Shown piece after piece: positions 1 through 15,326 of a DNA stretch of 21,983 nucleotides. Position numbers and translations under genes: made by a program. The stretch is from the UHGV virus genome UHGV-1604392; one strand, written 5' to 3'. Positions within the stretch are counted from its first letter, which is position 1. Each line of letters begins with the position of its first letter. The notes under the pieces were generated by a model. That model searched no databases, had not been told where the DNA came from, and saw nothing but the letters and a program-made list of their open reading frames with translations. Origin of the DNA: a virus.

Positions 1-1119
1 ACATTGAACACGCTATTCGTCGATAAAAACTTGCGTTTTCACGGCCTGATGCAGGCATTTTCCCGCACCAACCGTATTTATGATGCAACTAAAACCTTCG
101 GTAATATCGTCACTTTCCGGGATCTGGAACGCTCAACTATTGATGCCATAACGCTGTTTGGTGACAAAAACACCAAAAATGTGGTGTTAGAAAAGAGTTA
201 TACAGAGTATATGGAAGGCTTTACTGATGCTACTACTGGTGAAGCTAAACGCGGCTTCATGACAGTAGTTTCAGAACTGGAACAACGGTTCCCTGACCCT
301 ACCAGTATTGAAAGTGAAAAAGAGAAGAAAGACTTCGTTAAACTGTTTGGCGAATACCTGCGTGCCGAGAACATCCTGCAAAACTATGATGAATTTGCCA
401 CGCTAAAAGCCCTGCAACAAATCGATCTTAGCGATCCTGTTGCGGTAGAAAAATTCAAAGCAGAACATTATGTGGATGATGAAAAGTTCGCTGAATTGCA
501 AACAATTCGTCTCCCTGCTGATCGCAAGATTCAGGATTATCGTTCTGCCTATAACGATATTCGCGACTGGCAGCGCCGTGAGAAAGAAGCTGAGAAAAAA
601 GAGAAATCAACCACTGACTGGGATGACGTAGTTTTTGAGGTCGATTTGCTGAAGTCTCAGGAAATAAACCTGGATTATATCCTTGGACTGATTTTCGAAC
701 ACAACAGACAAAATAAAGGCAAGGGCGAAATGATCGAAGAGGTCAAACGCTTAATTCGTTCAAGCCTAGGGAACCGTGCTAAAGAGGGCCTGGTGGTCGA
801 TTTTATTCAGCAAACGAACCTGGATGATTTACCGGACAAAGCCAGCATCATTGACGCATTCTTTACGTTTGCTCAACGCGAACAGCAACGTGAAGCAGAA
901 GCATTGATAAAAGAAGAAAATCTCAATGAAGATGCAGCAAAACGCTATATTCGCACGTCTTTAAAACGCGAATATGCCACCGAAAATGGCACAGAATTAA
1001 ACGAAACATTACCAAAACTTAGTCCGTTGAATCCGCAATATAAAACGAAAAAACAGGCAGTTTTCCAGAAAATCGTCTCGTTTATTGAGAAGTTTAAAGG
1101 CGTAGGCGGAAAAATATAG
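1..1119 (+). CDS. hsdR: Type I restriction enzyme R subunit (HsdR), C-terminal part; the 5' end lies upstream of the window
   Basis: Frame is open from the window edge to TAG at 1117-1119. An SF2 helicase motif VI-like QAFSRTNR sits near the start of the fragment, followed by a long helical C-terminal region as in HsdR proteins. Confidence 0.75.
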
Positions 1120-1909: not shown

Positions 1910-1943
1910 AAAAAAATGCTGGTGGGCGCACTCCACCAGCATT
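1910..1943 (-). terminator. Rho-independent terminator on the minus strand (10-bp stem atgctggtgg/ccaccagcat followed by U7), between the 420-aa gene and the phosphatase gene
   Basis: Perfect 10-bp inverted repeat with a 7-nt loop; the A7 run at 1910-1916 gives U7 after the stem on the minus-strand transcript. Confidence 0.6.
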
Positions 1944-1962
1944 AAAAGTGACACTGTAACTA

Positions 1963-3225
1963 TTAGCGGACGTAAATAGTGCCGCCGTTCTCTTTTTCCC
2001 ATGCATCGCTAAGTGCATAGCAAACATCAAGAAGTCTTCTTGCCGCTGTTTCCTCTAAACCCAATTCGACAACCAACTGCTCATGACGGCGGGTAACCAC
2101 ATCAAACAGGGTATGCAGCCCTTTAGTTGCCAGATCATCAATGAATTCCGGTTCGAACGGCAGCTCTGCATCTGCCAACATAACCTCTTGCGCCCACTCA
2201 ACTCGACGGACCAGTTCCGGGCGGCGGCTTTCCATCTCTTTACAGATCAATTCATGGAAGAACTCTACCCAACCTTCCGGCTGGAACTCGCGGAAAATTG
2301 CCAACGGCTGGAAGTTTGGCATCAACCATTCGTTGATTCGGATATCAATGGCATAGCCCATGTCGCAGCAGAACTGATAAGCAAAGTCCAGCTTAGAAAC
2401 GATATAAGGACGCTCGTTATTGAACTCTTTAGGCGATGAGATCCCATAAGCCAGGAGGCGCGGGAAGAAGGAGATTTGCCCTAACGTCGGATGAAGTTTG
2501 CTTGCAGGGAAACGGCGCTCAGTAATGCCATACATTTCCTTCTTGAGCGTCGCAAATTTGGCATTCTCATTAACCAGCGCGGTAACCTCTGCTTTTTTAT
2601 TAGCAAATGCCACGCGCGCCTCGCTTGCATCTTTAATAGTTTTTTTGAGCTGTTGGTTAAGGTCGGCGACCTGCTTACGCAGTTCCTGTCGCTCGCTTTT
2701 AGCTTTGTTATAGCGTTTCTCAAGGTTAAAAGGATCAAGTTTCATGATCTCTTTATATTGAGATTTTAGCGTTGAAATCTGTGAGTTCCGCAGTTCAACC
2801 ATCGCGGTCATTTCATTGAGTTTTGTTTCCAGCTCAATGCTTATACGTTCGGCATTATCAGCACGCTGGTTGGCGTCATGCATCGCATCGTCGATCGCGT
2901 CCTGTTGCTGGCGTTTCAAATGTTCAATTTGCAGCTGAAGCTCTTCAATTTCTTTACCCTTCAGACCAAGATCCAACTGCATATTTTCAGCTGCATCTAC
3001 CAGGGAGTTATGGCTATCAGCTTCTGCGTTATAAACATCAATAAGCTGTGCGTGAAGCATCTCCGCTGACTGAACCGCATTATCAAAAAAACGTGCTGTG
3101 AGGTCATCACAACTAACGCGGCGTTGCGCGGCCCGGATGTTCTGGATAATGGCCGGGATACCGGCATTCAAGACATCAGGGATAGATACATTTTCGATTG
3201 ATTGCTTTTGTGCTGAAGTGCTCAT
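1963..3225 (-). CDS. 420-aa protein: long N-terminal coiled coil (about residues 30-225) plus C-terminal globular domain of unknown function
   Basis: Long ORF; heptad-rich E/K/Q/L sequence; its ATG lies 1 nt after the stop of the upstream 72-aa ORF (tight coupling). No catalytic motif recognised. Confidence 0.75.
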   Translation of the reverse strand: MSTSAQKQSIENVSIPDVLNAGIPAIIQNIRAAQRRVSCDDLTARFFDNAVQSAEMLHAQLIDVYNAEADSHNSLVDAAENMQLDLGLKGKEIEELQLQIEHLKRQQQDAIDDAMHDANQRADNAERISIELETKLNEMTAMVELRNSQISTLKSQYKEIMKLDPFNLEKRYNKAKSERQELRKQVADLNQQLKKTIKDASEARVAFANKKAEVTALVNENAKFATLKKEMYGITERRFPASKLHPTLGQISFFPRLLAYGISSPKEFNNERPYIVSKLDFAYQFCCDMGYAIDIRINEWLMPNFQPLAIFREFQPEGWVEFFHELICKEMESRRPELVRRVEWAQEVMLADAELPFEPEFIDDLATKGLHTLFDVVTRRHEQLVVELGLEETAARRLLDVCYALSDAWEKENGGTIYVR

Positions 3226-3226
3226 T

Positions 3227-3445
3227 TCAAAGTTCCGTATTAGCTTGTGCTTCGGTCATTTTTCCTAAGTATGAAGGAGGAAGGACTACGCAATTTGTAT
3301 CCAGTCCCTCACCTATGGCAGCCTGTAAAATTCTGGCTAAGGTGAGTCTCTTGTTGCGATACCTGGTGATGACATGCCTGATACCGCCGGTCGGCGTAAC
3401 AAAGGCGATCAGCCAGTAGTGATATTTCCGTCGGAATGGCCACAT
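3227..3445 (-). CDS. 72-aa basic small protein, translationally coupled to the 420-aa coiled-coil gene
   Basis: ORF begins right after the operator/palindrome region and ends 1 nt before the next start; function unknown. Confidence 0.55.
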   Translation of the reverse strand: MWPFRRKYHYWLIAFVTPTGGIRHVITRYRNKRLTLARILQAAIGEGLDTNCVVLPPSYLGKMTEAQANTEL

Positions 3446-3459
3446 AGTGCACCCTTTAG

Positions 3460-3476
3460 ATTGCTCTAATAAAAAA
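3460..3476 (+). promoter_or_regulatory. C1-operator-like site (ATTGCTCTAATAAAaaa)
   Basis: 14/17 match to the operator consensus; inverted relative to the site at 3509-3525. Confidence 0.45.
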
Positions 3477-3500
3477 CGTGATGAGTGTACATCACGTTTT
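3471..3500. repeat. Perfect palindrome AAAACGTGATG-agtgta-CATCACGTTTT (11-bp arms) between two inverted operator-like sites
   Basis: Read directly; could be a bidirectional terminator (GC stem flanked by T-runs on both strands) or a dimeric protein-binding site. Confidence 0.5.
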
Positions 3501-3508
3501 AAAAATAT

Positions 3509-3525
3509 GGAATTATTAGAGCAAT
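3509..3525 (-). promoter_or_regulatory. C1-operator-like site (reverse complement ATTGCTCTAATAAtTcc)
   Basis: Motif match immediately upstream (on the minus strand) of the 72-aa/420-aa operon. Confidence 0.55.
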
Positions 3526-3526
3526 A

Positions 3527-4228
3527 TTATTCTGATTCTCGCTCAAAAAACGAGCTAATAAGGGGAAGCCAATCCTCTGACACTTCGCGAGGTCGCGGTT
3601 TGCCGTGGAAAAAGATTATTCGGCAGTCCTTTGGTAATGCCCCATTCCCCCTGGAGTAACGCGCGCTCGCATATTTTGAACCAGGTTCCACAACATCGGC
3701 CTTGTAACTTACAAACCATCCTGGATACAGATCCTGAAATGCTGGTGTATCATCGCCCATAACCTTCCGTAAGAACCCCTGATCACCCCAGCACTCAGTA
3801 GTGACACAACGAGAAATCCAACCTTCCGGATCTTGCCAGAATGAACTCCAGATATGCGCTTTTACACTATTTGGTATCCACAGGGCACCGCTACCACGAT
3901 ATTGTGGATGGTAAAAATCCCTAAGCATGGTGAAGCTGGTTGGTGGATTCTCAAGGATTGGGCGTATATCACCGGCAATAACTGTGTCCAAATCCAGATA
4001 GAACAGATCATCTGTTATATCCGGTCGGAACAACTCGATTTTCGCCCACCAGCCACGGCACTTTTGCCACTGGTTGATCAATGGGACAACTTTGACGCCA
4101 GGTACATGTAAACGCTTCAGGTCTGTCAGGCAAATAATTTCATAGCCTTTTGGCAGTTGATTAACCAGCCACTGCACATCGGAAGCGTTATAGTCACCAC
4201 CAGAGCGAAAAACTAAAGCAATCTTCAT
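3527..4228 (-). CDS. Putative glycosyltransferase-like protein (DxD-type motif YLDLDTV), 233 aa
   Basis: N-terminal [13 protein letters not shown]... followed by LDLD resembles nucleotide-sugar transferase folds; its start overlaps the stop of the phosphatase remnant (ATGA overlap). Confidence 0.55.
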
Positions 4229-4509
4229 GCTGCACCATCACCTTTCACTTTCATCAATGTCAGGTTTCCGCAAAATACGGCACCAGTGTCGATATACTGC
4301 TGATTCCAGAATGTCTTCGGGCTTTTCACCGGAGTGTGACCAAAGATAAAACGATCTGCGCCCGAAATTTCGCCACCAATATCATCCATCGAATCACTGA
4401 TACGCTCGCGCGCCCAGACAACGTTGAAAAGCGGCACCTCCTTACCGAATTGATATTCATTATCCGGATAGTCGGCATGGGCTATAACCTTTTTTCTGCC
4501 CTTCAGCCT
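4225..4509 (-). pseudogene. ppp: C-terminal half of a lambda-type Ser/Thr protein phosphatase (metallophosphatase); frame open without a usable start, N-terminal catalytic motifs absent
   Basis: Translation ...[23 protein letters not shown]...[15 protein letters not shown]...[21 protein letters not shown] closely matches the lambda phosphatase C-terminus as I recall it; the frame opens only after a TGA at about 4510 and overlaps the end of the upstream ORF. Confidence 0.6.
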
Positions 4510-4810
4510 TCATTTTCCCGGCGGTTGCTTTTGAACGTTTCCCTCCGTTAGGCGTTGCATGCAACAGCTCATAGATGTCAGGGTGCTTGCGTTCGATGTA
4601 ATCAAAAATGAAAACCTGCTCGAAGTGCTCGCAATTTCCGTCGCGCAGGTCTGGGTTCTTTGCCAGTGCTGCAAGTGCCTTCGCATGTGGAGAAACTTCT
4701 TTTACCGGCGCAAGCGATAAGAATGGATCCTTTTTGGTTTTTGGCCTGGACCGCCCCTTATTTCGACGCTCACTAAAAGCCTGAAACTCTTCCTCAGTAA
4801 AGCGCAACAT
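4460..4810 (-). CDS. 116-aa ORF; appears to be a degenerate N-terminal phosphatase domain (KKD...RDGNCEH...LL..NGG echoes lambda phosphatase but lacks GDxHG/GDxxDRG/GNHE)
   Basis: ATG at 4810 two nt after the stop of the upstream gene; ends in a different frame from the downstream phosphatase remnant, across an A6 run (about 4491-4496). Confidence 0.5.
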
Positions 4811-4812
4811 AA

Positions 4813-5058
4813 TCAGTCAAATCCTGCCGGTCGCATGCCATATTTACGCTGTTTTGCGGCCTGCTCTTCCCTGTGCCATTGCGCACATTCAGCGTCACAA
4901 TAAATGCCTGATTCAATCGATTCATTGCAGTAACGACACTTCCCTGTAAATACCTGGCTCACGACCTGTGCCTGCTTTCTGATGTTATCGATGGCCATGT
5001 CTTTGAGAGCTTCTAACTGATTCATGCTCAGCTCTGCATCATCAACACGTTCTGCCAA
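4813..5058 (-). CDS. Small zinc-ribbon protein (coiled-coil helix plus CxxC-x9-CxxxC), TraR/DksA-like architecture
   Basis: TTG start with GAGGAA 7 nt upstream; four Cys in a C-terminal cluster after a helical N-terminus. Confidence 0.55.
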   Translation of the reverse strand: MAERVDDAELSMNQLEALKDMAIDNIRKQAQVVSQVFTGKCRYCNESIESGIYCDAECAQWHREEQAAKQRKYGMRPAGFD

Positions 5059-5115
5059 TTTTGTTTCCTCGTGAAGAACCTACTTAAGGGCAGAATGATA
5101 CATTCCACAATCAAA

Positions 5116-5132
5116 ATTGCACTAATAATTTT
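5116..5132 (+). promoter_or_regulatory. C1-operator-like site (ATTGCaCTAATAAtTTT) in the promoter region of the zinc-ribbon operon
   Basis: 15/17 match to the operator consensus; overlaps a candidate -35 for the minus-strand promoter (-10 TATCAT). Confidence 0.4.
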
Positions 5133-5204
5133 CTTTTATTAAGTTAAATATTCAACAAATGACTAGCAGTAGAATCACCATCATCTATTTCTGGCAGGCT
5201 GACT

Positions 5205-5750
5205 ATGGCTACATCAATCACTACAACCCAAAGCACCCGGCAATATCCTCTGTCGCGGTATGACGACCGCAACATAGCCGATCCAATACTCAGGGCAGAG
5301 CTGCGCAAAGAGGTGATGCTTATGTGTGAATCGAACGACAAGAATCTGACGATTTATTACGTTCTTCCCGATGAGCAATATCGCCCGGATTTGCTGGCTT
5401 ACCGTATGTGGGGCATACCTGTTGTGCCTCCCCGTTCCCTAATACGGGGACACTCTGCGGTCGATTTTTTGACGGGGGACGACTCATACCCCGTGGCATC
5501 TGGCTTCTTAGGCCGCTACCATCATCAGATCATCGTTTGCATTTACTTTAATGGTCAGTTTCTAAACCGCCGCAAAGTCGCTAACCATGACGAAAACCCT
5601 GAAAAAAACGCCCACCCGAAGATGGGCAAACTGGAAGCTCGTAACGCACTTCGGCGTTGCCACTTAGGCGCATGGTCAACCTGGCAACTCGGTGGTTTGT
5701 CTGGGAGGACTAGGCCCAGCCATGCTTACCGCCGCGCCTGTCGCGGCTAA
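5205..5750 (+). CDS. Doubtful ORF; only the first ~70 codons look protein-like, the rest is rare-codon rich and overlaps a hairpin cluster
   Basis: No convincing Shine-Dalgarno; downstream part rich in CTA/ATA/CGG/AGG codons with R/H/W/G-rich translation. Confidence 0.2.
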   Translation: MATSITTTQSTRQYPLSRYDDRNIADPILRAELRKEVMLMCESNDKNLTIYYVLPDEQYRPDLLAYRMWGIPVVPPRSLIRGHSAVDFLTGDDSYPVASGFLGRYHHQIIVCIYFNGQFLNRRKVANHDENPEKNAHPKMGKLEARNALRRCHLGAWSTWQLGGLSGRTRPSHAYRRACRG

Positions 5751-5801
5751 CAGCTAAATCGCTCTATAAATCACGATTCATTGAGGCTATATTACACTAA
5801 T

Positions 5802-5818
5802 AAATTTATTAGAGCAAT
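5802..5818 (-). promoter_or_regulatory. C1-operator site, exact 17/17 match (reverse complement ATTGCTCTAATAAATTT), overlapping the methyltransferase stop codon
   Basis: Exact consensus match read from sequence. Confidence 0.65.
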
Positions 5819-8178
5819 ATACCCAAAACGTCATGAGCTACACCTCGAGTGTCTCCCTTACAAGACACAGAACGTCTGGCAAAAAGAGGTTCCACTCTGA
5901 AGCCACTGTCATGATAAAGCTCTCTGATGTTTGGCGCGCCACTGTTAGTAATGAGAACCTTTGCACCTCGACGATGAGCATCCGTCAACAGAGACACCAG
6001 GCGTTTTTGCTCTTCAAACTTAAAGTCATGACCGGAATAGTTCGTGAATCCCTCTGTATTTGGAAGCGGTTCATACGGCGGATCGCAAAAGATGACATCT
6101 CCTTCTCCGGCAGCTTCAATCACCGCTGCAAAATCACCGCATACAAACTCAGACCGCCCTTCCGCACCGAGGAAGGCTTCCATCTCCTGTAATGGGAAAT
6201 ACGGAGTTTTATACTTCCCATAACCGACATTGAACTCACCGGCCTGGTTGTAGCGCGTCAATCCGTTAAAACAATGTCGGTTCAGGAACAAAAACGCCGC
6301 TGCGCGATGTAAATCATCATAGACTTGTTTGTTAAACGCATTCCGTACTGCCAGGTATCCTTCCTGTGTGTTGTAGTCCTGGAAGAAACGATGTGCCAGA
6401 GTGATAAGTGAATGCGCCTCGCGTTGCAGAGTCTTGTAAAAGTTAATCAGGTCAGCATTCACATCATTTAGCAGATTTTCCTGGTATCCGGCATTCATGA
6501 AGACAGCTCCGCCACCAACGAAAGGTTCAATCAAGCGCTTCCCTTCTGGCAAATAGCGAAAGATTTGTTCCAGAACACCAAATTTTCCACCAGCCCATTT
6601 GAATATAGACCGTTCGAATTCTGCCGCTGGTTTAACTTTTCGCTCTTTTGTTTCACTTCCTTCTTTCTGCCGACATACGGCCTTAGTAATCTGATCGCCA
6701 ATCCAGCGCATTACTGGTATTGCCATACTATTGCCGATCGCTTTGTAACGCGGTCCGTCAGCTGCAAGCATCGCGGCCTCTTCTTCGCTTAAATCTGGAT
6801 AGTGATTGCGAAGATATGCCAGTTCATCTGAATTAACTTTTTTACGCTTTTCCGTAGGGATCAACGTATGCCCATCAGGAAAACCTTGCAGCCTTTCACA
6901 TTCGACAGGGGTAAGACGGCGGACAGCTACTTCTGCGTTTCTTACTTCATAGCAAACAGCTGTTGGATTTTTAGCCATTAGAGATGGTGAAGTATTCTTA
7001 GTTGCAGCATGTTGTGTACCGCTCATACGCTCAGGAAAAGCCAATGTAACAAGATGCTCATGGCTTTCTTGCTCACGTGCCCGCAATGTACCATGCCCTT
7101 CTGACCAAAAACCTGCTCCTGTGCTGCTAAAAACGGCAAGATCAGTGGCATCTTTAAAATCTCTTGCCTTTACTGTCGATGCGGTTTCATCGTCAATATA
7201 TTCCCCAAATGCTGCCATCCTGAAAGCGTTTACGGCTTTCGTCGATTTCATACCGGGTGGCATGTCAGCGTGTAGGCATGGATTTAGGCTTTCGCCACTG
7301 ATTGCAGCGCCATTTGCAATAATGGCGGAAGCGATTTCCTTCTTTTTTCGGCTCGGCGCAATATTCCGGCGCACGCCTTCGAACTCAAAAAGTACCGTTG
7401 CGGGATCGAGGTCTGTTCGAGCACTTGCGACAACAAACACGCATCGGCGTCGTTGTGCCACTCCGAAGTATTGGGCATCAAGGATTCTCCAGGCCACTTT
7501 TCGCTGCGGTCCATAAATACAACCACACTGCGGCCACTTTGGAGCATGGCAACCGGTTTTGATATCCCACCGCCAGAACGCGTTACTTTTTCCTGATTCA
7601 GGTCGATCACCTGGTTCGAATGGCGCATCTTCTCCAGCCAATCCGGCAAGGAAACATCCGAAGGCGTTATCTGCCGATGACAAGACTCCTGGGACATTTT
7701 CCCAGACGATAACGGCTGGTTTGAGAAATGACTCAGCCCGTTTGTCGTCAATTGCATTTGCAAGCTCCACATACTTTAAAGTTAGCGCGCCACGCTCATC
7801 ATCAAGCCCACCACGTAATCCAGCGATACTGAATGCCTGACAGTTATGGACCACCGCACCATTGAGGATATAGGAATGATCACCTTCGACTTCTATGTTG
7901 TATACAGTATCTAGGCCTACCGATTTAAACTCTTTGACTGTTCGTAAAAGCATTCCATGAGCCAATCTTGATTTACGTGACAATTTCTGCGGGCAGATTG
8001 TTACCTGATAATAATTCCGTTGATTTACCACGCGATCCTCAATCACTTTTTTGGGCTCAACTTCAATAAAGCTGACCGAAGAAACATAACCACAAGTCTG
8101 TGACAACTCCGCAACGCCCCAAGCAATACTCGCGGCTTCAATTCCACTGCAAACAGATCCATAGCACAGCTCTTTCAC
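5809..8178 (-). CDS. dmt: Bifunctional DNA methyltransferase: N-terminal C5-cytosine MTase domain fused to C-terminal Dam-like N6-adenine MTase domain (P1 Dmt-like)
   Basis: C5 motifs [42 protein letters not shown] and catalytic NCQ; C-terminal [15 protein letters not shown] and DPPY motifs of Dam-type enzymes. GTG start overlaps the stop of the upstream rdgC-like gene. Confidence 0.85.
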
Positions 8179-9080
8179 TGCTTAGCCTCTCCACCAAGGG
8201 CATTTACCAGAGCATCAACCAGGCACGAAATTTCACTGGTCAACAGGAAGAAATCTGCGTCCAGTCGCTGCGCAACATCTTCACTATCAATATCAGAGTT
8301 CTGCTCAAGCAATTCATCCGCAAATTTGACGCTGGTAAGGCTGAAGTTATGGTCCAGTGTAAATTTAATGCGGTTCTGCCAGTCGAGTGCCAACTTAGTG
8401 ACGAGCTTGCCAGCTTCCAGGTGTGTGGAAATTTCATCGCTTCCCAAATCCTGCTTTTTCACTCGGGCAATACCGCCATCCTCAAGCACTGCCTTAAGTT
8501 CTGCCGCATCCCCCATTTGAAATCCCTGTGGAGCACTACCATCACGTACCCAGTCGGTCAGCGTTAATTCAATGGGATTTTCAACACTCAGGGGAACAAC
8601 AGGAAGAGAACCCAGAGACTTACGCATAAGCGCGAGCATATCCTCTGCCTGCCGCGCGCTGGCATTGATATAGATACGTTTAGTTGAACCATCGTAGATC
8701 GCCTGGATAACAGAAAACTTTGAAAAAGCCCGTGGCAGAAGAGAATGCAGAACTTCGTCTTTCAGGGAATCCTTCTCTGTTTTCTTCAGTTTACGCGCTT
8801 GTTCTTGCTCAAGTTTTTCAATTTTTTCTTGAATAGCTCGCTGGATAACCGGCGGGGGAAGAATTTTTGTTTCGCGCTTTGCTTCAACAAGGATAAAACC
8901 ATTTCCATGCATAGCGATAACTTCGGAATTATCACCAAATGGCGATACAAAACCGAACTTGGCCATATCCTGACTACCGCATGGCGTGAAAAGGATCATT
9001 TTCTTTTTATCTTCTAAGTCGGTCAGATCCGCCTCACGAGAAAGTTTATAAATAGTAATGTTTTTCCAGTGCTTAAACAT
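8175..9080 (-). CDS. rdgC: RdgC-family recombination-associated DNA-binding protein homologue (302 aa from ATG at 9080)
   Basis: Strong similarity to E. coli RdgC as I recall it ([13 protein letters not shown]..., [13 protein letters not shown]..., [27 protein letters not shown]..., [10 protein letters not shown]...). The ORF-track start at 9194 is an upstream extension. Confidence 0.85.
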
Positions 9081-9357
9081 GTTGTAACCCTTGAATATCA
9101 ACCACAGAAAGCTCGTCTTTGTAGAAAAAGGCCAGGTTGTGGCCCCCCCTCGTTTGAGCGTATGAGCTGGGACCAATTTCGTTCTTCCAGACAAATGGCT
9201 TTAAATCCGTACGGCGAAGCATAAAAACGCGATTTGTTCCGCTCTGATTCCCAATGAGGCAAAAGCCTTCTTTCACCTTGATAGCCTGCAAGTTGTCGAG
9301 TTCACCGCTGGTTACACGGCTATCGAACTCCTTGCGGCTTATTAGCTCCATCTGCAT
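9073..9357 (-). CDS. 94-aa protein of unknown function, first gene of the rdgC-dmt operon
   Basis: ATG at 9357 with GGAG 7 nt upstream; lies downstream of an operator-like site; overlaps the rdgC start by 8 nt. Confidence 0.5.
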
Positions 9358-9428
9358 CTGACGACTCCAAACAAATGCCCATTGAAGGGCGATGGCTGAA
9401 TGGTACCGAAAACACGACATAAAAAACA

Positions 9429-9445
9429 ATATTTATTAGAGCAAT
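9429..9445 (-). promoter_or_regulatory. C1-operator-like site (reverse complement ATTGCTCTAATAAATaTT) with TTGCTC-17nt-TATGTC promoter-like elements
   Basis: Same 17-mer as at 1368-1384; sits between the divergent minus- and plus-strand operons. Confidence 0.6.
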
Positions 9446-9525
9446 TATGCAATAGTTAACGCCATGTAGACCACAAGTAACCTAAGTTAAAATAACGAAA
9501 ACCAGAGCAAATAATTGGTGATGAC

Positions 9526-9810
9526 GTGGCAAGTATTGCAACAAAAGACAGCATTTGTTCGGGGCACGGAGGATTCCCATCCAGGCCTCCTGTAGAGAGT
9601 GAACCACTACTTAAAGTCAACGGAGTCGAAGTGTTAGTTGATGGTAAGCAATATGCACAGCATACCGATGGAAACAGTACGCACGGTGGGCAAGCTATAT
9701 CAACCAGGGCATGGTTTACCGTCAATGGTAAAGGGGTCGTATGCGTTGGTGACCCTGTTTCATGCGGCTCTACCGTAGCGTCAGGAGACGGCCTGGTTCA
9801 GGTAAGTTAG
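9526..9810 (+). CDS. PAAR-like small beta-rich protein (94 aa)
   Basis: Repeats of VNG...V.VGD strands (LKVNGVEVLVDG, FTVNGKGVVCVGD) plus CSGHGG and THGG motifs resembling PAAR spike-tip proteins; GTG start. Confidence 0.45.
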   Translation: MASIATKDSICSGHGGFPSRPPVESEPLLKVNGVEVLVDGKQYAQHTDGNSTHGGQAISTRAWFTVNGKGVVCVGDPVSCGSTVASGDGLVQVS

Positions 9811-9818
9811 GAGATATC

Positions 9819-10607
9819 ATGCTGGAAAAAGACTACCAGTTATCCGCATATAAAAAATTGGCCGCTGCCGGTGGGATGAAAACACCTGGTGCCATAACAT
9901 CGGCACGAAACAGTGCTAACACGGCAAAACAGCTTGCAGAAGAATTGACCGGATTAATTTTGGATACAATTGTCTATCCCGACACTATTACCAGCTATGT
10001 TTCAACGATCAGAACAACCACAGCCGGCTTAACGAACATTGGAGAACTGGCAACTAAGCACGCGGACCTGTTGGCTGGTTATGCAGATCTGTCAATGCTG
10101 CTTCAACTCGATATTGGTTGGGATGTTTACTGCCGTGCTAATGAGCGAGAAGTTTCAGAACTGCCAATCTCTATTGCCATTGGTGATGTGACTATTACTA
10201 AATCGCTTGAGGACGCTGTAAACGCGCTTAATACATCAAGTTTAGTCGCTGCTATGGGGGAGATTAACCAGACCCTTAACACTGGCTCTGAAAGCTCGTC
10301 AGGTACTGGTTCAGGCGGCGGCACTGCCATTCCCCCACCAGCACTAACAGAAAAGCAAATTGAAGCTCTGAAAGTAGCAACTGAACAGTTTGGGGGAGTT
10401 TTCAACCAAACAACAGCGCCCACAGTTGCATTGCAACAGCAGTATGAACGGGCGAAGGAAAGCGCCAGCATAGCCATAACTGCTTATGGCCATGCTATTG
10501 GTACCGCGCTTGCGGAAGCATCAGCAAATAAGACCAGCACAGCCAGCGCAGTCGCCGCTTTGGTTCCTGATTCTGTTCTTGATGAATTAAACAAAGCGGC
10601 ACAGTAA
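9819..10607 (+). CDS. 262-aa protein of unknown function with an internal Gly/Ser-rich linker (SESSSGTGSGGGTAIPPP)
   Basis: ATG at 9819 with AGGAG 6 nt upstream, 8 nt after the previous stop; no catalytic motif recognised. Confidence 0.6.
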   Translation: MLEKDYQLSAYKKLAAAGGMKTPGAITSARNSANTAKQLAEELTGLILDTIVYPDTITSYVSTIRTTTAGLTNIGELATKHADLLAGYADLSMLLQLDIGWDVYCRANEREVSELPISIAIGDVTITKSLEDAVNALNTSSLVAAMGEINQTLNTGSESSSGTGSGGGTAIPPPALTEKQIEALKVATEQFGGVFNQTTAPTVALQQQYERAKESASIAITAYGHAIGTALAEASANKTSTASAVAALVPDSVLDELNKAAQ

Positions 10608-10646
10608 CAAAGGACTTCATTGATAATTTTTCTTCAGGAGGAAGAC

Positions 10647-11069
10647 ATGTCATTCTTTTCTACGTTAAAAACAGCTTTGTCTTTGAAGGAGAAACTTGCT
10701 GCTACTGGTGTTCTTGTTCTGATTTGCGCACTTGTTGGTGCTGGGTTTGCGTGGGAACGTCATCAGCTAAAGCAAGCCATGGAGAAAATTGGCAGTCTTG
10801 ATCAGGCTGTTAAGGAACGTGATAAGTCAATAATGGATCTTAACCAGACCATTGAGACGATGAACAAAGCAGAGCAACATTTTCACAGCCAGGAAGTGAA
10901 AAATGAATCAGAACAAGCCAAGTATGCTGACAGGCAAATGGAACGAAAAGCTGAAGTTCAGAAACAACTTGTTGCGGCGGGTAATGTTCGCCAGCGTATT
11001 CCTGCTGACACTCAGCGGTTGCTCCGGGAGTCGATCAGCGAATTTAACGCCGACGCCGACAAAGGTTAA
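10647..11069 (+). CDS. i-spanin-like protein: N-terminal transmembrane helix followed by periplasmic coiled coil (Rz-like)
   Basis: ATG with AGGAGG upstream; hydrophobic segment TGVLVLICALVGAGFAW then charged coiled-coil region; C-terminal ...RQRIPADTQRLLRESI resembles Rz C-termini. Confidence 0.55.
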   Translation: MSFFSTLKTALSLKEKLAATGVLVLICALVGAGFAWERHQLKQAMEKIGSLDQAVKERDKSIMDLNQTIETMNKAEQHFHSQEVKNESEQAKYADRQMERKAEVQKQLVAAGNVRQRIPADTQRLLRESISEFNADADKG

Positions 11070-11235
11070 CCACCCTGCCCCAAAAAGTGCATTTATGTGC
11101 AGGATGCCAGAGTTTAGCAGTGAATATTTTGATGATCTGCCAGCGTATATCCTCGATACAGAAACGATGCTGATGGGGATTAACAGGAAGAATCACAACG
11201 TTAATGATTACAACCGAGCTATTAGCGGTAACTAA
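10984..11235 (+). CDS. o-spanin-like outer-membrane lipoprotein (Rz1-like), +1 frame, overlapping the 3' end of the i-spanin-like gene
   Basis: Signal peptide with lipobox LTLSGC (MFASVFLLTLSGCSGS...), Pro-rich mature region; overlapped out-of-frame arrangement. Confidence 0.5.
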   Translation: MFASVFLLTLSGCSGSRSANLTPTPTKVNHPAPKSAFMCRMPEFSSEYFDDLPAYILDTETMLMGINRKNHNVNDYNRAISGN

Positions 11236-11246
11236 AAGGGATTTTT

Positions 11247-11639
11247 ATGTCTGATAAAGTAACAGTAAAGCAAACTATCAACAAAGCGACTTCAATCTAC
11301 AAAATTGAGCAAATCACTGTTGGCAAGCCAGGATCTGAACAATACCGTCGTGCTTTCGAGCTTGCCGATCAGCTTGGTTTAAAATACCCGGATTGCATCG
11401 AGCATGTATTTCCGACCTATGCTGATGAGCAATGTACTCATGTTCTTACCGAAGAGGATTTTTTCAGCACTGAAGAACGAGAAGGCGTTGATCGCTGCAT
11501 TGGTGTGATTTGCTCTTCAGTGAGTTATGAGTTATTCCCTAATGTCCATGAAGATGGTGGTATTGGATACCAATTCCTGTACGAAGGCGATGAGCTTAAA
11601 TGTTATGAACATGGTCTTCTTATCGAAAGCGTAGAATAA
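11247..11639 (+). CDS. 130-aa acidic protein with five scattered Cys, unknown function
   Basis: ATG with AAGGGA upstream; last gene before a terminator and the plasmid origin. Confidence 0.6.
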   Translation: MSDKVTVKQTINKATSIYKIEQITVGKPGSEQYRRAFELADQLGLKYPDCIEHVFPTYADEQCTHVLTEEDFFSTEEREGVDRCIGVICSSVSYELFPNVHEDGGIGYQFLYEGDELKCYEHGLLIESVE

Positions 11640-11651
11640 TATGACTTCCTT

Positions 11652-11680
11652 CCAACCGGCTTTGTTGGCCGGTTTATTCA
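11652..11680 (+). terminator. Rho-independent terminator (stem aaccggc/gccggtt followed by TTTATT)
   Basis: Inverted repeat plus T-rich tail directly after the 130-aa gene stop. Confidence 0.5.
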
Positions 11681-11683
11681 ACT

Positions 11684-11760
11684 TATCCACAGCATAGATC
11701 CAATAAACAGATCCTAAAGAGAACCTAGGAAGATCCAAAGAAGATCCCGGATCGCTGTAA
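11684..11760. promoter_or_regulatory. Plasmid origin core: consensus DnaA box TTATCCACA (about 11684-11692) followed by a cluster of five GATC (Dam) sites in AGATCC-type repeats
   Basis: Organisation matches the P1 oriR layout (DnaA box, GATC heptamers, then iterons). Confidence 0.55.
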
Positions 11761-11794
11761 GCCGCGTCATTACTGGCCTGAAATGGGATCAACA

Positions 11795-11898
11795 TTGACT
11801 ATACGCGATTTTATGTTGACTGTGCACGATTTATTGTTGACTGCACGCGATTTATTGTTGACTATACGCGACAGAAACATTGACTGTAAGCGATTTTA
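11795..11898 (+). repeat. incC-type iterons: five direct repeats of about 19 bp (TTGACTryrCGCGATTT-like) at 21-22-bp spacing, upstream of repA
   Basis: Repeat starts at about 11795, 11816, 11837, 11858 and 11880, read from sequence. Confidence 0.8.
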
Positions 11899-11974
11899 GA
11901 GTCTGAATATTCACAGCTGTTGATAACAGCCATCCAAATTGACGTCAGGCCGCGCCACACATGGAGAAACTGCG

Positions 11975-12859
11975 ATGCCGGAAGAAAGTAAAGGCTTCCT
12001 TAGCGTTGAAGAAGTTGCAGGAAATACAGGAGAAATCCACAGCCTGAAGCCCAATAACAACAGCACTATACAACCCATCGCTTTGTTGCGCTTAGGTGTG
12101 TTTGTGCCAACCTTAAAATCTACCAATGTGGCGCTACGTCGCGGATCGTCAGTTACTACAAACACAACGAACGCAACCGAAGAACTATCAAGCCTCAAAA
12201 TTGTTGAGCAGGAAGGCTATGAGGGAATTGAAATTCATGGTCCACGCCTGGATATGGATACTGATTTTAAGGTGTGGGTGGGCATAACCTCCGCGTTGTT
12301 TGACTACGCACCTGATGATGACGGCATAATCACCCTGCCATTCTCCGAGTTTGCCGATCGATGCGGCTATCCACGTAAGCGCCTTTCAAAGGCGTTCCGT
12401 AAAAGTATTGATGACTCTCTGACACGCATTCAGCAGACAGTTGTCAAATTCCGCTTCCCGGCGGCAAAAGGTCATCTCAATAACATTAACGTCAACTTGT
12501 TGGCATATAGCAGCCTGAATACCGAGCTTGATGTTATCGAGATCCAGCCGCAGAAACAGCTATCTGAACTTTACTATGTTGACTATAAGCGAATCCTGAA
12601 GCTGAAGATGCTGGATAAACTAGGGCGCAAAGAGACGGCCAAGGTACTGTATACATTCTTTGAGGCTCTACCCGCCAACCCGGCACCTGTCAGCATTGAG
12701 CGCCTTAGAGCGAGGCTTAATCTCAAATCATCCGTTAGCGTGCAAAATAGCGTTATCAGAAAAGCCATGAAAGATTTGGAAGCTATTGAATATCTTAAAT
12801 TTTCAGAGATAAAAAACGGCAGGAAAATCGGCTTCCAGATCCATAAGCGCAATCCATAA
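11975..12859 (+). CDS. repA: Replication initiator RepA (P1 RepA family), about 294 aa from ATG at 11975
   Basis: Flanked by iterons on both sides; LRLGVFVP and GPRLDMDTDFKVW segments match P1 RepA as I recall it; GGAGAAA 8 nt upstream of the ATG. The ORF-track start at 11939 is a TTG inside the iteron region. Confidence 0.85.
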   Translation: MPEESKGFLSVEEVAGNTGEIHSLKPNNNSTIQPIALLRLGVFVPTLKSTNVALRRGSSVTTNTTNATEELSSLKIVEQEGYEGIEIHGPRLDMDTDFKVWVGITSALFDYAPDDDGIITLPFSEFADRCGYPRKRLSKAFRKSIDDSLTRIQQTVVKFRFPAAKGHLNNINVNLLAYSSLNTELDVIEIQPQKQLSELYYVDYKRILKLKMLDKLGRKETAKVLYTFFEALPANPAPVSIERLRARLNLKSSVSVQNSVIRKAMKDLEAIEYLKFSEIKNGRKIGFQIHKRNP

Positions 12860-12861
12860 TA

Positions 12862-13118
12862 TTGACTATATGCGATAGCGAGAAGTTGACTATAGGCGAC
12901 ATTCGTTGACGCTGGTGGATTTTTGCTGGCGTCAATATTCTGCAAGTCGCTATTGAGATGGCTTTTAGGGGCATTTCATCGCGTATAGTCAACGTTTCTC
13001 CCGACAATATCTTACATAGTCGATCTTTGGTGGAGTTAAATCGACTACAGTCAACTTTTGACTGTAGGCACATCGCGCATAGTCAACTATTCACATTAAC
13101 CTTCGCGCATAGTCAACA
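12862..13118. repeat. incA-type iteron array: about nine copies of the same motif in both orientations (TTGACTATA... and ...TATAGTCAA), downstream of repA
   Basis: Copies counted by eye, starting at about 12862 and ending at about 13118. Confidence 0.75.
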
Positions 13119-13151
13119 TTTGCGCGGTTCTCATCAAGCAGTGGTATTGAT

Positions 13152-13961
13152 ATGCAAGAAGAGAAACAACACTACCTCTACGTTCTGGTGCCAGAGAACG
13201 GAGATACTTTTAAAATCGGCATTTCATGTGGTCCATTGGCACGGTTTAAAGGGCTACAAGTGAGTCCCGATTTTGCGCTTTCACGGGTCTATCGTGGTAC
13301 GCGTTTGGCAATGGTTAATCTTGAGCGGGCTTTACACGCAACCTTTTTCCCCTGGAATGCGCCGTGGGAGAAAAGCGCCGGTGGCGGGCATACTGAATGG
13401 TTTACACGAGAGTGTCTTGATAAGGTTTTGGCTTATATCGAATATCTAAATGATATGTGGGGAGGGATTCTCGAGCGCATTAAGTCGAATGATTTACTTC
13501 AGCGTCCAGTAGATGCTGCTTGCTCTTTCGAAAAAGAGCTGGATGTTACTTCTATCGTGACTTTCAAAGATGACGCAGGAATGAGGGACGTGGCTTATGT
13601 CTCCATATCTGGCTATGAACCGGACGCGATCCGCGCTCAATGTGAATTGCTGAAAGCAATGTTTATGCTTCGGACTAAATATCCCTGGGATACAGGGCGG
13701 GTGTGCTTCCCTATGGAAGAGTTAACCGCCACCATTGATTCCCAGCTTTACCACGATAATCCAGAGAAGTTTTTTAGCCTTTTAGCCGATAATGGGCTTA
13801 ACTGTGTGTCCGGGCTGGGGCGAAGTAGAATCCAACATGCCTCGCTCTTCGGTCCCTTCTTTTACGATCGACACGGGTACTTTGAGGCTGAACTTCCGGC
13901 GCTTACGCGTGCTATAGATACTATCGATTTCGAACGATTATTCGCTGCTCTTAGCAAATAA
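13152..13961 (+). CDS. T5orf172/GIY-YIG-superfamily domain protein (N-terminal ~100 aa) with C-terminal domain of unknown function, 269 aa
   Basis: YLYVL...(10 aa)...KIGIS spacing typical of GIY-x10-YIG, Arg 8 residues later (GPLAR), then ...NLERALH...TEWF; followed by its own terminator. Confidence 0.65.
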   Translation: MQEEKQHYLYVLVPENGDTFKIGISCGPLARFKGLQVSPDFALSRVYRGTRLAMVNLERALHATFFPWNAPWEKSAGGGHTEWFTRECLDKVLAYIEYLNDMWGGILERIKSNDLLQRPVDAACSFEKELDVTSIVTFKDDAGMRDVAYVSISGYEPDAIRAQCELLKAMFMLRTKYPWDTGRVCFPMEELTATIDSQLYHDNPEKFFSLLADNGLNCVSGLGRSRIQHASLFGPFFYDRHGYFEAELPALTRAIDTIDFERLFAALSK

Positions 13962-13965
13962 CACT

Positions 13966-13990
13966 GATGCCCCTGAACGGGGCTTTTTTG
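13966..13990 (+). terminator. Rho-independent terminator (GCCCC-tgaac-GGGGC followed by TTTTTT)
   Basis: Read directly from sequence, 5 nt after the stop codon. Confidence 0.7.
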
Positions 13991-14129
13991 TGCCCTCCTT
14001 GTAACTCTCAATCGTGCAAAATGAACCAAACATGCAGAGAATGCTATGTACAAGCATCTACGCATACATTATTATTTTATGCAGCATTTTTAATTAAATT
14101 CAAAAATACAGCATAAAGGATGACTTTCG

Positions 14130-15326
14130 ATGAGTGATTCCAGCCAGCTTCACAAGGTTGCTCAAAGAGCAAACAGAATGCTCAATGTTCTGACTGAACA
14201 AGTACAGTTGCAAAAGGATGAGCTACACGCGAACGAGTTTTACCAGGTCTATGCGAAAGCGGCACTGGCAAAATTGCCTCTACTGACTCGAGCGAACGTT
14301 GACTATGCCGTGAGTGAAATGGAAGAAAAGGGTTATGTTTTCGATAAACGCCCTGCTGGCTCTTCAATGAAATATGCGATGTCAATTCAGAACATCATTG
14401 ACATATATGAACATCGCGGAGTGCCAAAATACCGGGATCGCTACAGCGAAGCGTATGTGATTTTCATCTCCAATCTTAAAGGCGGTGTGTCAAAAACTGT
14501 ATCGACGGTTTCTCTGGCGCATGCAATGCGTGCTCACCCTCATCTTCTGATGGAAGATTTAAGGATTCTGGTTATTGACCTTGATCCGCAATCTTCAGCA
14601 ACGATGTTTTTAAGCCATAAACACTCTATTGGTATCGTAAACGCAACATCTGCACAGGCTATGTTGCAGAATGTAAGCCGTGAAGAGCTGTTAGAGGAGT
14701 TTATTGTTCCTTCTGTTGTACCTGGGGTTGACGTTATGCCTGCGTCGATTGACGATGCCTTTATTGCATCCGATTGGAGAGAGCTGTGCAATGAGCATCT
14801 ACCGGGTCAGAACATCCATGCAGTCCTGAAAGAAAATGTGATTGATAAGCTGAAGAGCGATTATGACTTTATCCTCGTTGATAGTGGTCCTCACCTTGAC
14901 GCCTTCCTGAAAAATGCTTTGGCCTCGGCCAATATACTGTTTACACCTCTGCCGCCTGCAACGGTTGATTTCCACTCATCGCTTAAATACGTTGCCCGCC
15001 TTCCTGAGTTGGTGAAACTCATTTCGGATGAAGGCTGCGAGTGCCAGCTTGCGACTAACATTGGTTTTATGTCCAAGTTGAGTAACAAGGCAGACCATAA
15101 GTATTGCCATAGCCTGGCTAAAGAAGTGTTCGGTGGGGATATGCTTGATGTCGTCCTCCCTCGCCTTGACGGTTTTGAACGCTGCGGCGAGTCTTTTGAC
15201 ACTGTTATTTCAGCTAACCCGGCAACGTATGTTGGTAGTGCTGATGCATTGAAGAACGCGCGAATTGCTGCGGAAGATTTTGCTAAAGCAGTTTTTGACC
15301 GTATTGAATTTATCAGATCTAACTGA
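14130..15326 (+). CDS. parA: Partition ATPase ParA (type Ia, with N-terminal DNA-binding extension)
   Basis: 398 aa; deviant Walker A KGGVSKT; sequence matches P1 ParA as I recall it. Confidence 0.95.
   Translation: MSDSSQLHKVAQRANRMLNVLTEQVQLQKDELHANEFYQVYAKAALAKLPLLTRANVDYAVSEMEEKGYVFDKRPAGSSMKYAMSIQNIIDIYEHRGVPKYRDRYSEAYVIFISNLKGGVSKTVSTVSLAHAMRAHPHLLMEDLRILVIDLDPQSSATMFLSHKHSIGIVNATSAQAMLQNVSREELLEEFIVPSVVPGVDVMPASIDDAFIASDWRELCNEHLPGQNIHAVLKENVIDKLKSDYDFILVDSGPHLDAFLKNALASANILFTPLPPATVDFHSSLKYVARLPELVKLISDEGCECQLATNIGFMSKLSNKADHKYCHSLAKEVFGGDMLDVVLPRLDGFERCGESFDTVISANPATYVGSADALKNARIAAEDFAKAVFDRIEFIRSN

Follow-up and report, generated by a model that had tools for sequence, protein, structure and literature searches.

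The window, the whole 21,983-nt stretch of DNA that was analysed, contains between positions 4225 and 4810 two reading frames of the minus strand whose relation to each other is the question addressed here: are they the halves of one broken or recoded phosphatase gene, or pieces of two different genes? The original prediction described a lambda-type Ser/Thr protein phosphatase split across two frames at a run of six adenines, with a dead N-terminal half. Comparison with phage P1 argues for two genes. The region is probably (a probability of about 0.93) the scar of one 2,017-bp deletion in a P1-like phage-plasmid, formed at 5-bp direct repeats of GTTAT. The scar joins pmgM at codon 109 to ppp at codon 144, out of frame. 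The junction region is an ordinary, non-functional remnant that consists of two gene pieces, pmgM' and 'ppp. The features of the locus are collected in Table 1.

Table 1. Features at and around the pmgM–ppp junction, in window positions, with the interval that the window lacks
Feature	Position	Strand	Basis
Control region upstream of pmgL: late promoter LPpmgL (5165..5147) and C1 operator O26 (5132..5116)	5116..5165	-	Homology to P1 annotation
pmgL, intact, 81 aa, TTG start as in P1 annotation	4813..5058	-	0 mismatches in 246 nt against P1 78602-78847
pmgM', truncated pmgM	4460..4810	-	BLASTP against P1 PmgM; phrog_2363
A6 run	4490..4495	-	Native pmgM Lys-Lys codons; identical GGGCAGAAAAAAGGTTAT in P1 79159-79176
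Deletion junction, one GTTAT copy kept	4484..4488	-	BLAST blocks and three-way alignments against P1
3' remnant of ppp, codons 144-230 and stop	4225..4488	-	Identity to P1 Ppp; phrog_246
pmgQ (glycosyltransferase in RefSeq annotation), intact, 233 aa	3527..4228	-	Full-length ORF, no internal stop
Lost interval: last 83 codons of pmgM; C1 operator Oppp; predicted promoter PpmgN; pmgN, pmgO and pmgP; first 143 codons of ppp			P1 annotation

A single break of collinearity with P1

BLAST against the P1 genome (NC_005856) divides this part of the window into two blocks. Window 5300..4484 corresponds to P1 78360-79176 at 99.5% identity, and window 4488..3401 corresponds to P1 81189-82276 at 98.6% identity. 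The two blocks share 5 bases, and the only break of collinearity lies between them. P1 has two copies of GTTAT, one at each break point (79172-79176 and 81189-81193), the window carries it once (4488..4484), and 2,017 bp of P1 are absent from the window. The same break pattern appears against the closest phage, vB_EcoM-Ro157c2YLVW, and a megablast search of phage records splits the query into a 5' block that matches pmgL/pmgM and a 3' block that matches ppp/pmgQ.

This arrangement, in which P1 has the short direct repeat at each end of the lost DNA and the window keeps one copy, is that of a microhomology-mediated (slipped-strand) deletion. Replication slippage or microhomology-mediated illegitimate recombination classically leaves such a single retained short direct repeat, and slipped mispairing or illegitimate recombination at GTTAT would produce the loss of 2,017 bp in one step. 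Besides GTTAT, a looser likeness surrounds the break points (GGGCAGAAA...GTTAT versus GGGCAAGAAA...GTTAT), which probably accounts for one plasmid match that reaches 13 nt across the junction.

The deletion is probably recent, because neither remnant shows accumulated damage. The element would also have tolerated the loss, since P1 can grow lytically without the deleted genes: pmgM, pmgO, pmgP, and ppp score as non-essential, while pmgN is non-essential by deletion and essential by CRISPRi (PMC10695390). These assignments are taken from a table in that paper that refers to Gonzales et al. 2022, the main text of which (PMC9024508) does not name pmgM or ppp. The pmgM–ppp block, dispensable in the laboratory (PMC10695390), can also be lost in nature.

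What the two remnants retain

The upstream frame is a 116-aa ATG-initiated ORF (4810..4460, minus strand, in the ORF listing) that ends, as originally described, in a frame other than that of the phosphatase tail. It has a confident family assignment of its own, unrelated to phosphatases: it is PmgM, a VRR-NUC nuclease. BLASTP against P1 PmgM returns E=9e-82, and the ORF matches phrog_2363 at 6e-73 over profile positions 1-111 of 192. Pfam and NCBIfam searches of the 116-aa ORF gave no match; its identity came from PHROGs and from the direct comparison with P1. PmgM codons 1-109 occupy 4810..4484, with 108/109 residues identical and one mismatch (F72I). They are followed by 7 codons read out of frame (SPCRLSG) before a TAA stop at 4462..4460.

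P1 pmgM, which encodes a VRR-NUC / PD-(D/E)xK nuclease and is annotated as a Holliday junction resolvase in P7, has the same start and the same place after pmgL. The truncated gene differs from it in the loss of the C-terminal 83 residues, cut directly before the catalytic GY-PD...IExK, and in the foreign residues added after the cut. P1 PmgM aligns with the VRR-NUC structure PDB 4QBL at 3.5e-17, and this alignment pairs GYPD...IELK with GYPD...IEIK and places PD at residues 110-111. The Pfam VRR_NUC match in full-length P1 PmgM (residues 100-160) scores 21.2, below the gathering cut-off of 23.8, so the VRR-NUC assignment rests on the 4QBL match. The retained part of PmgM shows VRR-NUC homology and lacks the catalytic PD...(D/E)xK core: it ends in ...KKGY, and with the break directly behind GY109 the nuclease core has been lost. 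A protein translated from the start of pmgM would be an inactive 116-aa stub without PD...ExK.

The faint echo of a phosphatase N-terminal half that had been seen in this ORF disappears on comparison. BLASTP of the ORF against full-length Ppp gives E=2.4, with an 11-residue match to the wrong (C-terminal) part, and GNCEH, which had been taken for a trace of GNHE, is native PmgM sequence. A single ppp gene whose N-terminal half has decayed beyond recognition, with a frameshift or indel at the A-run, could appeal to this superficial GNCEH/GNHE resemblance and to the adjacency of the two ORFs, and to nothing else. Such a history is next to impossible when the upstream ORF matches PmgM 1-109 at all but one residue and has no significant similarity to Ppp, when the flanks match two P1 loci, separated by 2 kb, at 98.6-99.5% identity, and when the ppp remnant shows no decay at all. 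The description of the locus as a dead phosphatase or pseudogene holds to the extent that the tail is a start-less piece without catalytic motifs. It fails on the N-terminal half, which is not decayed: codons 1-143 are physically deleted.

The tail itself was recognized correctly. It is a frame without a start codon that matches the C-terminus of lambda-type phosphatases, GHTP included, and all 87 of its 87 residues (4488..4228, stop 4227..4225) are identical to P1 Ppp 144-230. Over 264 nt it differs from P1 at one position, and this difference is synonymous. The length of about 95 codons first given to it describes the frame from stop to stop, of which 7 codons are pmgM DNA read in the +1 frame and 87 are ppp. 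The remnant matches phrog_246 (NinI-like phosphatase) at 1.2e-35. Its match to NCBIfam PRK11439 is partial (94 bits against a cut-off of 326), and it matches 0 Pfam families, whereas full-length P1 Ppp scores 59.4 bits with the Metallophos model. Like P1 ppp, it lies immediately upstream of pmgQ, whose ATG overlaps the ppp stop codon (ATGA). Unlike P1 ppp, it lacks the first 143 codons and a start codon and falls short of the Pfam Metallophos and NCBIfam cut-offs; there is neither a complete domain nor a score at family threshold. The frame has no in-frame start upstream because a TGA closes it 7 codons before the junction, and the 87-codon tail would go untranslated.

The missing part of Ppp holds most of its catalytic machinery. 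The alignment between P1 Ppp and lambda phosphatase 1G5B has E=5.9e-95. Motif I, GDxHG, is GDLHG at P1 Ppp 27-31; motifs II and III, GDxxDRG and GNHE, are GDLIDRG at 56-62 and GNHE at 82-85. All three lie within the deleted codons. What remains is the C-terminal homology with the histidine ligands in VIAHAD and GHTP. The 1G5B alignment places five of seven active-site residues in the deleted part. We take the retained histidines to be the equivalents of lambda-PP His139 and His186, and the positions of Asp20, His22, Asp49, Arg53, Asn75, and His76 to fall in the deleted motifs. Even if it were translated, the tail is predicted to be incapable of phosphatase activity. The expectation that a joined product would lack catalytic residues is borne out for both parents, as the 1G5B and 4QBL alignments put the three phosphatase motifs and the nuclease core in the lost DNA.

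The ppp tail might still be expressed alone in a new, non-catalytic role, for example from a 70-aa GTG-initiated ORF at 4437..4225 with an adjoining AAGGAGG. The profile phrog_16794, built on 59-residue proteins and covering only the C-terminal end of Ppp-like phosphatases, matches remnant residues 28-86 (window 4228-4404, minus strand, E=1e-38), which means that truncated ppp tails are called as genes in other phage genomes too. Expression of this kind is nevertheless highly improbable here. No spacer separates the AAGGAGG from the GTG, and the former consists of native ppp Gly-Lys-Glu codons followed by a Val codon, GTG; no gene is called there in either metagenome contig that carries the junction; the sequence is unchanged from the intact gene and bears no sign of adaptation; and a piece of 70-87 aa from a single-domain alpha/beta sandwich is unlikely to fold. 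Under the deletion reading, the correct annotation is that pmgM' and 'ppp are gene remnants flanking a deletion and not a frameshifted or recoded phosphatase.

Reading frames and transcription across the scar

The A6 run is present at 4495..4490, as the original prediction stated, and the frames do not switch there. The point where the window stops being collinear with P1 is GTTAT (4488..4484), two bases beyond the run on its 3' side. An indel of the sequencing type in the homopolymer is likewise discounted, since P1 has exactly the same run and the break is adjacent to it. Relative to pmgM, ppp is read in the +1 frame. A fusion by -1 frameshift, which had been proposed, is impossible, as TGA and TAG stops near the A-run block the -1 frame and ppp is not read in that frame. 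The locus thus lacks a downstream frame reachable by a -1 shift, and its two-frame arrangement recurs in none of the matching phage, plasmid, or E. coli records.

A shift in the other direction deserves separate consideration. A ribosomal +1 shift or transcriptional slippage on A6 could in principle produce a functional PmgM(1-~108)::Ppp(144-230) fusion. In the +1 frame the 7 codons ahead of the junction are free of stops, and within this stretch lies AAA AAA G, where a tRNA-Lys slip of +1 would enter ppp; the arrangement also persists in more than one sample. Against this, P1 has the A6 run as a normal part of pmgM and needs no shift there, and six adenines are few for efficient slippage. A fusion protein would be without the catalytic residues of either parent, and the -1 shift first suggested runs into stops. 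The juxtaposition was made by a deletion that no matching relative has, so there is no conservation to indicate selection. A functional recoded fusion is for these reasons extremely improbable. Slippage of +1 on the A6 run may occur at a low level, and the possibility of a slip on AAA AAA G into ppp appears to be an accident of where the deletion fell, and nothing suggests more.

The deletion also bears on the transcription of the genes around it. The intact pmgL is the first gene of an operon that now reads into the scar. The promoter LPpmgL and the operator O26 upstream of it are identical to P1, the promoter activity being inferred from the P1 annotation only. A sigma-70 consensus scan of 3400-5500 found no site, and a terminator scan of the same interval found one weak terminator-like site, inside pmgQ. 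The gene pmgQ keeps its own start. Because the deletion removed its own promoter and operator, pmgQ and the genes after it would now be transcribed from the pmgL promoters only.

The gene pmgQ stands apart in its divergence as well. It differs from P1 at 12/702 nt and 4 aa, against 0-1 nt in each of its flanking neighbours pmgL, pmgR, pmgM', and the ppp tail. Such a local increase suggests a mosaic origin, and on the ppp side phage phi456 is the closer relative.

Occurrence of the junction and state of the element

No record spans the junction among the phages (0/19), plasmids (0/613), or E. coli genome records (0/611) that match the query. Because the E. coli set repeats many of the plasmid records, the numbers do not add up to some 1,240 independent records; the phage and plasmid records, all P1-like, come to about 630. 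Among the matches listed, the pmgM and ppp halves always occupy two separate places, about 2 kb apart, and none of these P1-like relatives carries them as one place. The exact 29-mer of the junction is absent from GTDB genomes, IMG/VR, and JGI metagenomes. An exact-protein look-up found the 116-aa product in ENA metagenome contigs: ERZ28621273 scaffold_537, which is 99.9% identical to window 1918-14807 (12.9 kb) and has an identical junction, and ERZ1745231 NODE_7973, which occurs in 2 samples and again has an identical junction.

These occurrences bear strongly on whether the junction could be an assembly artefact, a chimeric or collapsed join of pmgM and ppp in place of a molecule with the 2 kb intact. 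Its absence from the matching phage, plasmid, and E. coli records and from the exact scans would fit an artefact, as would the fact that every contig bearing the junction comes from a metagenome assembly and that such assemblies are broken or contain Ns at a hairpin some 1 kb from it. On the other hand, the two contigs share the identical junction although their names follow different conventions, both flanks are clean, and the shared repeat of 5 bp is far below any assembler k-mer, so that graph collapse cannot create the junction. An artefact is very unlikely. The deletion is real, because the same junction is found in two independent metagenome assemblies, and it is from metagenome assemblies, and from none of the isolate collections searched, that the junction is known.

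The carriers of the junction are at least 99.9% identical to the window, and the deletion defines a small, nearly clonal lineage. With carriers this similar, persistence shows no more than common descent. It is exceedingly doubtful that a P1-derived plasmid lineage has been selected in gut communities in which occasional +1 slippage on A6 yields a non-catalytic PmgM(N-terminal)::Ppp(C-terminal) chimera that, for example, binds a partner of one parent.

[quoted passage not shown] The pmgM–ppp scar has little importance beyond annotation. Its modest value is that of a further P1-like phage-plasmid shedding phage genes through short-homology deletions. Like the defective P1-like plasmids (PMC10879196), the element has a P1 backbone, on which repA, parA, and parB are kept, and has lost phage genes. 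It differs from them in that its three deletions are absent from the plasmid records matching the junction queries.

The second of these deletions lies at window 5416-5417 (ORF 5205..5750, plus strand) and amounts to 9,758 bp relative to vB_EcoM-Ro157c2YLVW, with a 2-bp TA homology. Its effect is to place sequence from downstream of dmt behind the first ~71 codons of baseplate gene 26 and to remove most of gene 26, the tail/baseplate genes 25, 24, 7, 6, and 5, ban, four tRNAs, and several small genes. In P1, genes 5, 6, 24, and 7 score as essential, and 25 and 26 are among the known essential genes (PMC10695390). The loss of these tail genes should leave the element unable to build tails. The third deletion, at window 8118-8126 (ORF 5809..8178, minus strand), removes 918 bp (306 codons) in frame inside dmt at an imperfect 9-bp repeat. 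The resulting 789-aa protein still matches C5-cytosine and N6-adenine methyltransferase domains. The 9,758-bp junction is present in 0/612 matching plasmid records and the 918-bp dmt junction in 0/478; the ERZ28621273 contig carries both, and ERZ27296277 carries the dmt variant. Seen as a 22-kb window with three lineage-specific deletions, one of which took essential tail genes, the element looks like a phage-plasmid in decay, on its way to being a plain plasmid.

A hairpin at window 5427-5452 (CCTCCCCG...CGGGGA) lies 17 nt past the 9,758-bp deletion, and in all three metagenome assemblies the sequence is interrupted or reads N within its loop. The loop in the window is without the hexamer ACAGAC of Ro157c2YLVW; the metagenome contigs L003 and L006 have AGAC on the side of their break that faces the stem, like Ro157c2YLVW. 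This may be a variable or hard-to-assemble spot. In the ERZ1745231 contig, the last 30 nt (L004 3526-3555, beyond window 1910) diverge from the window just downstream of pmgS, and the pap side in that sample may be different or chimeric. Finally, a 371-residue C-terminal part of the R subunit of a type I restriction enzyme (EcoR124_C, E=1e-72) is encoded at window 4-1119 (plus strand), beside the pap-like gene. The stretch 1-1194 is missing from P1 and Ro157c2YLVW at this position and is present in phage vB_EcoM-673R5.
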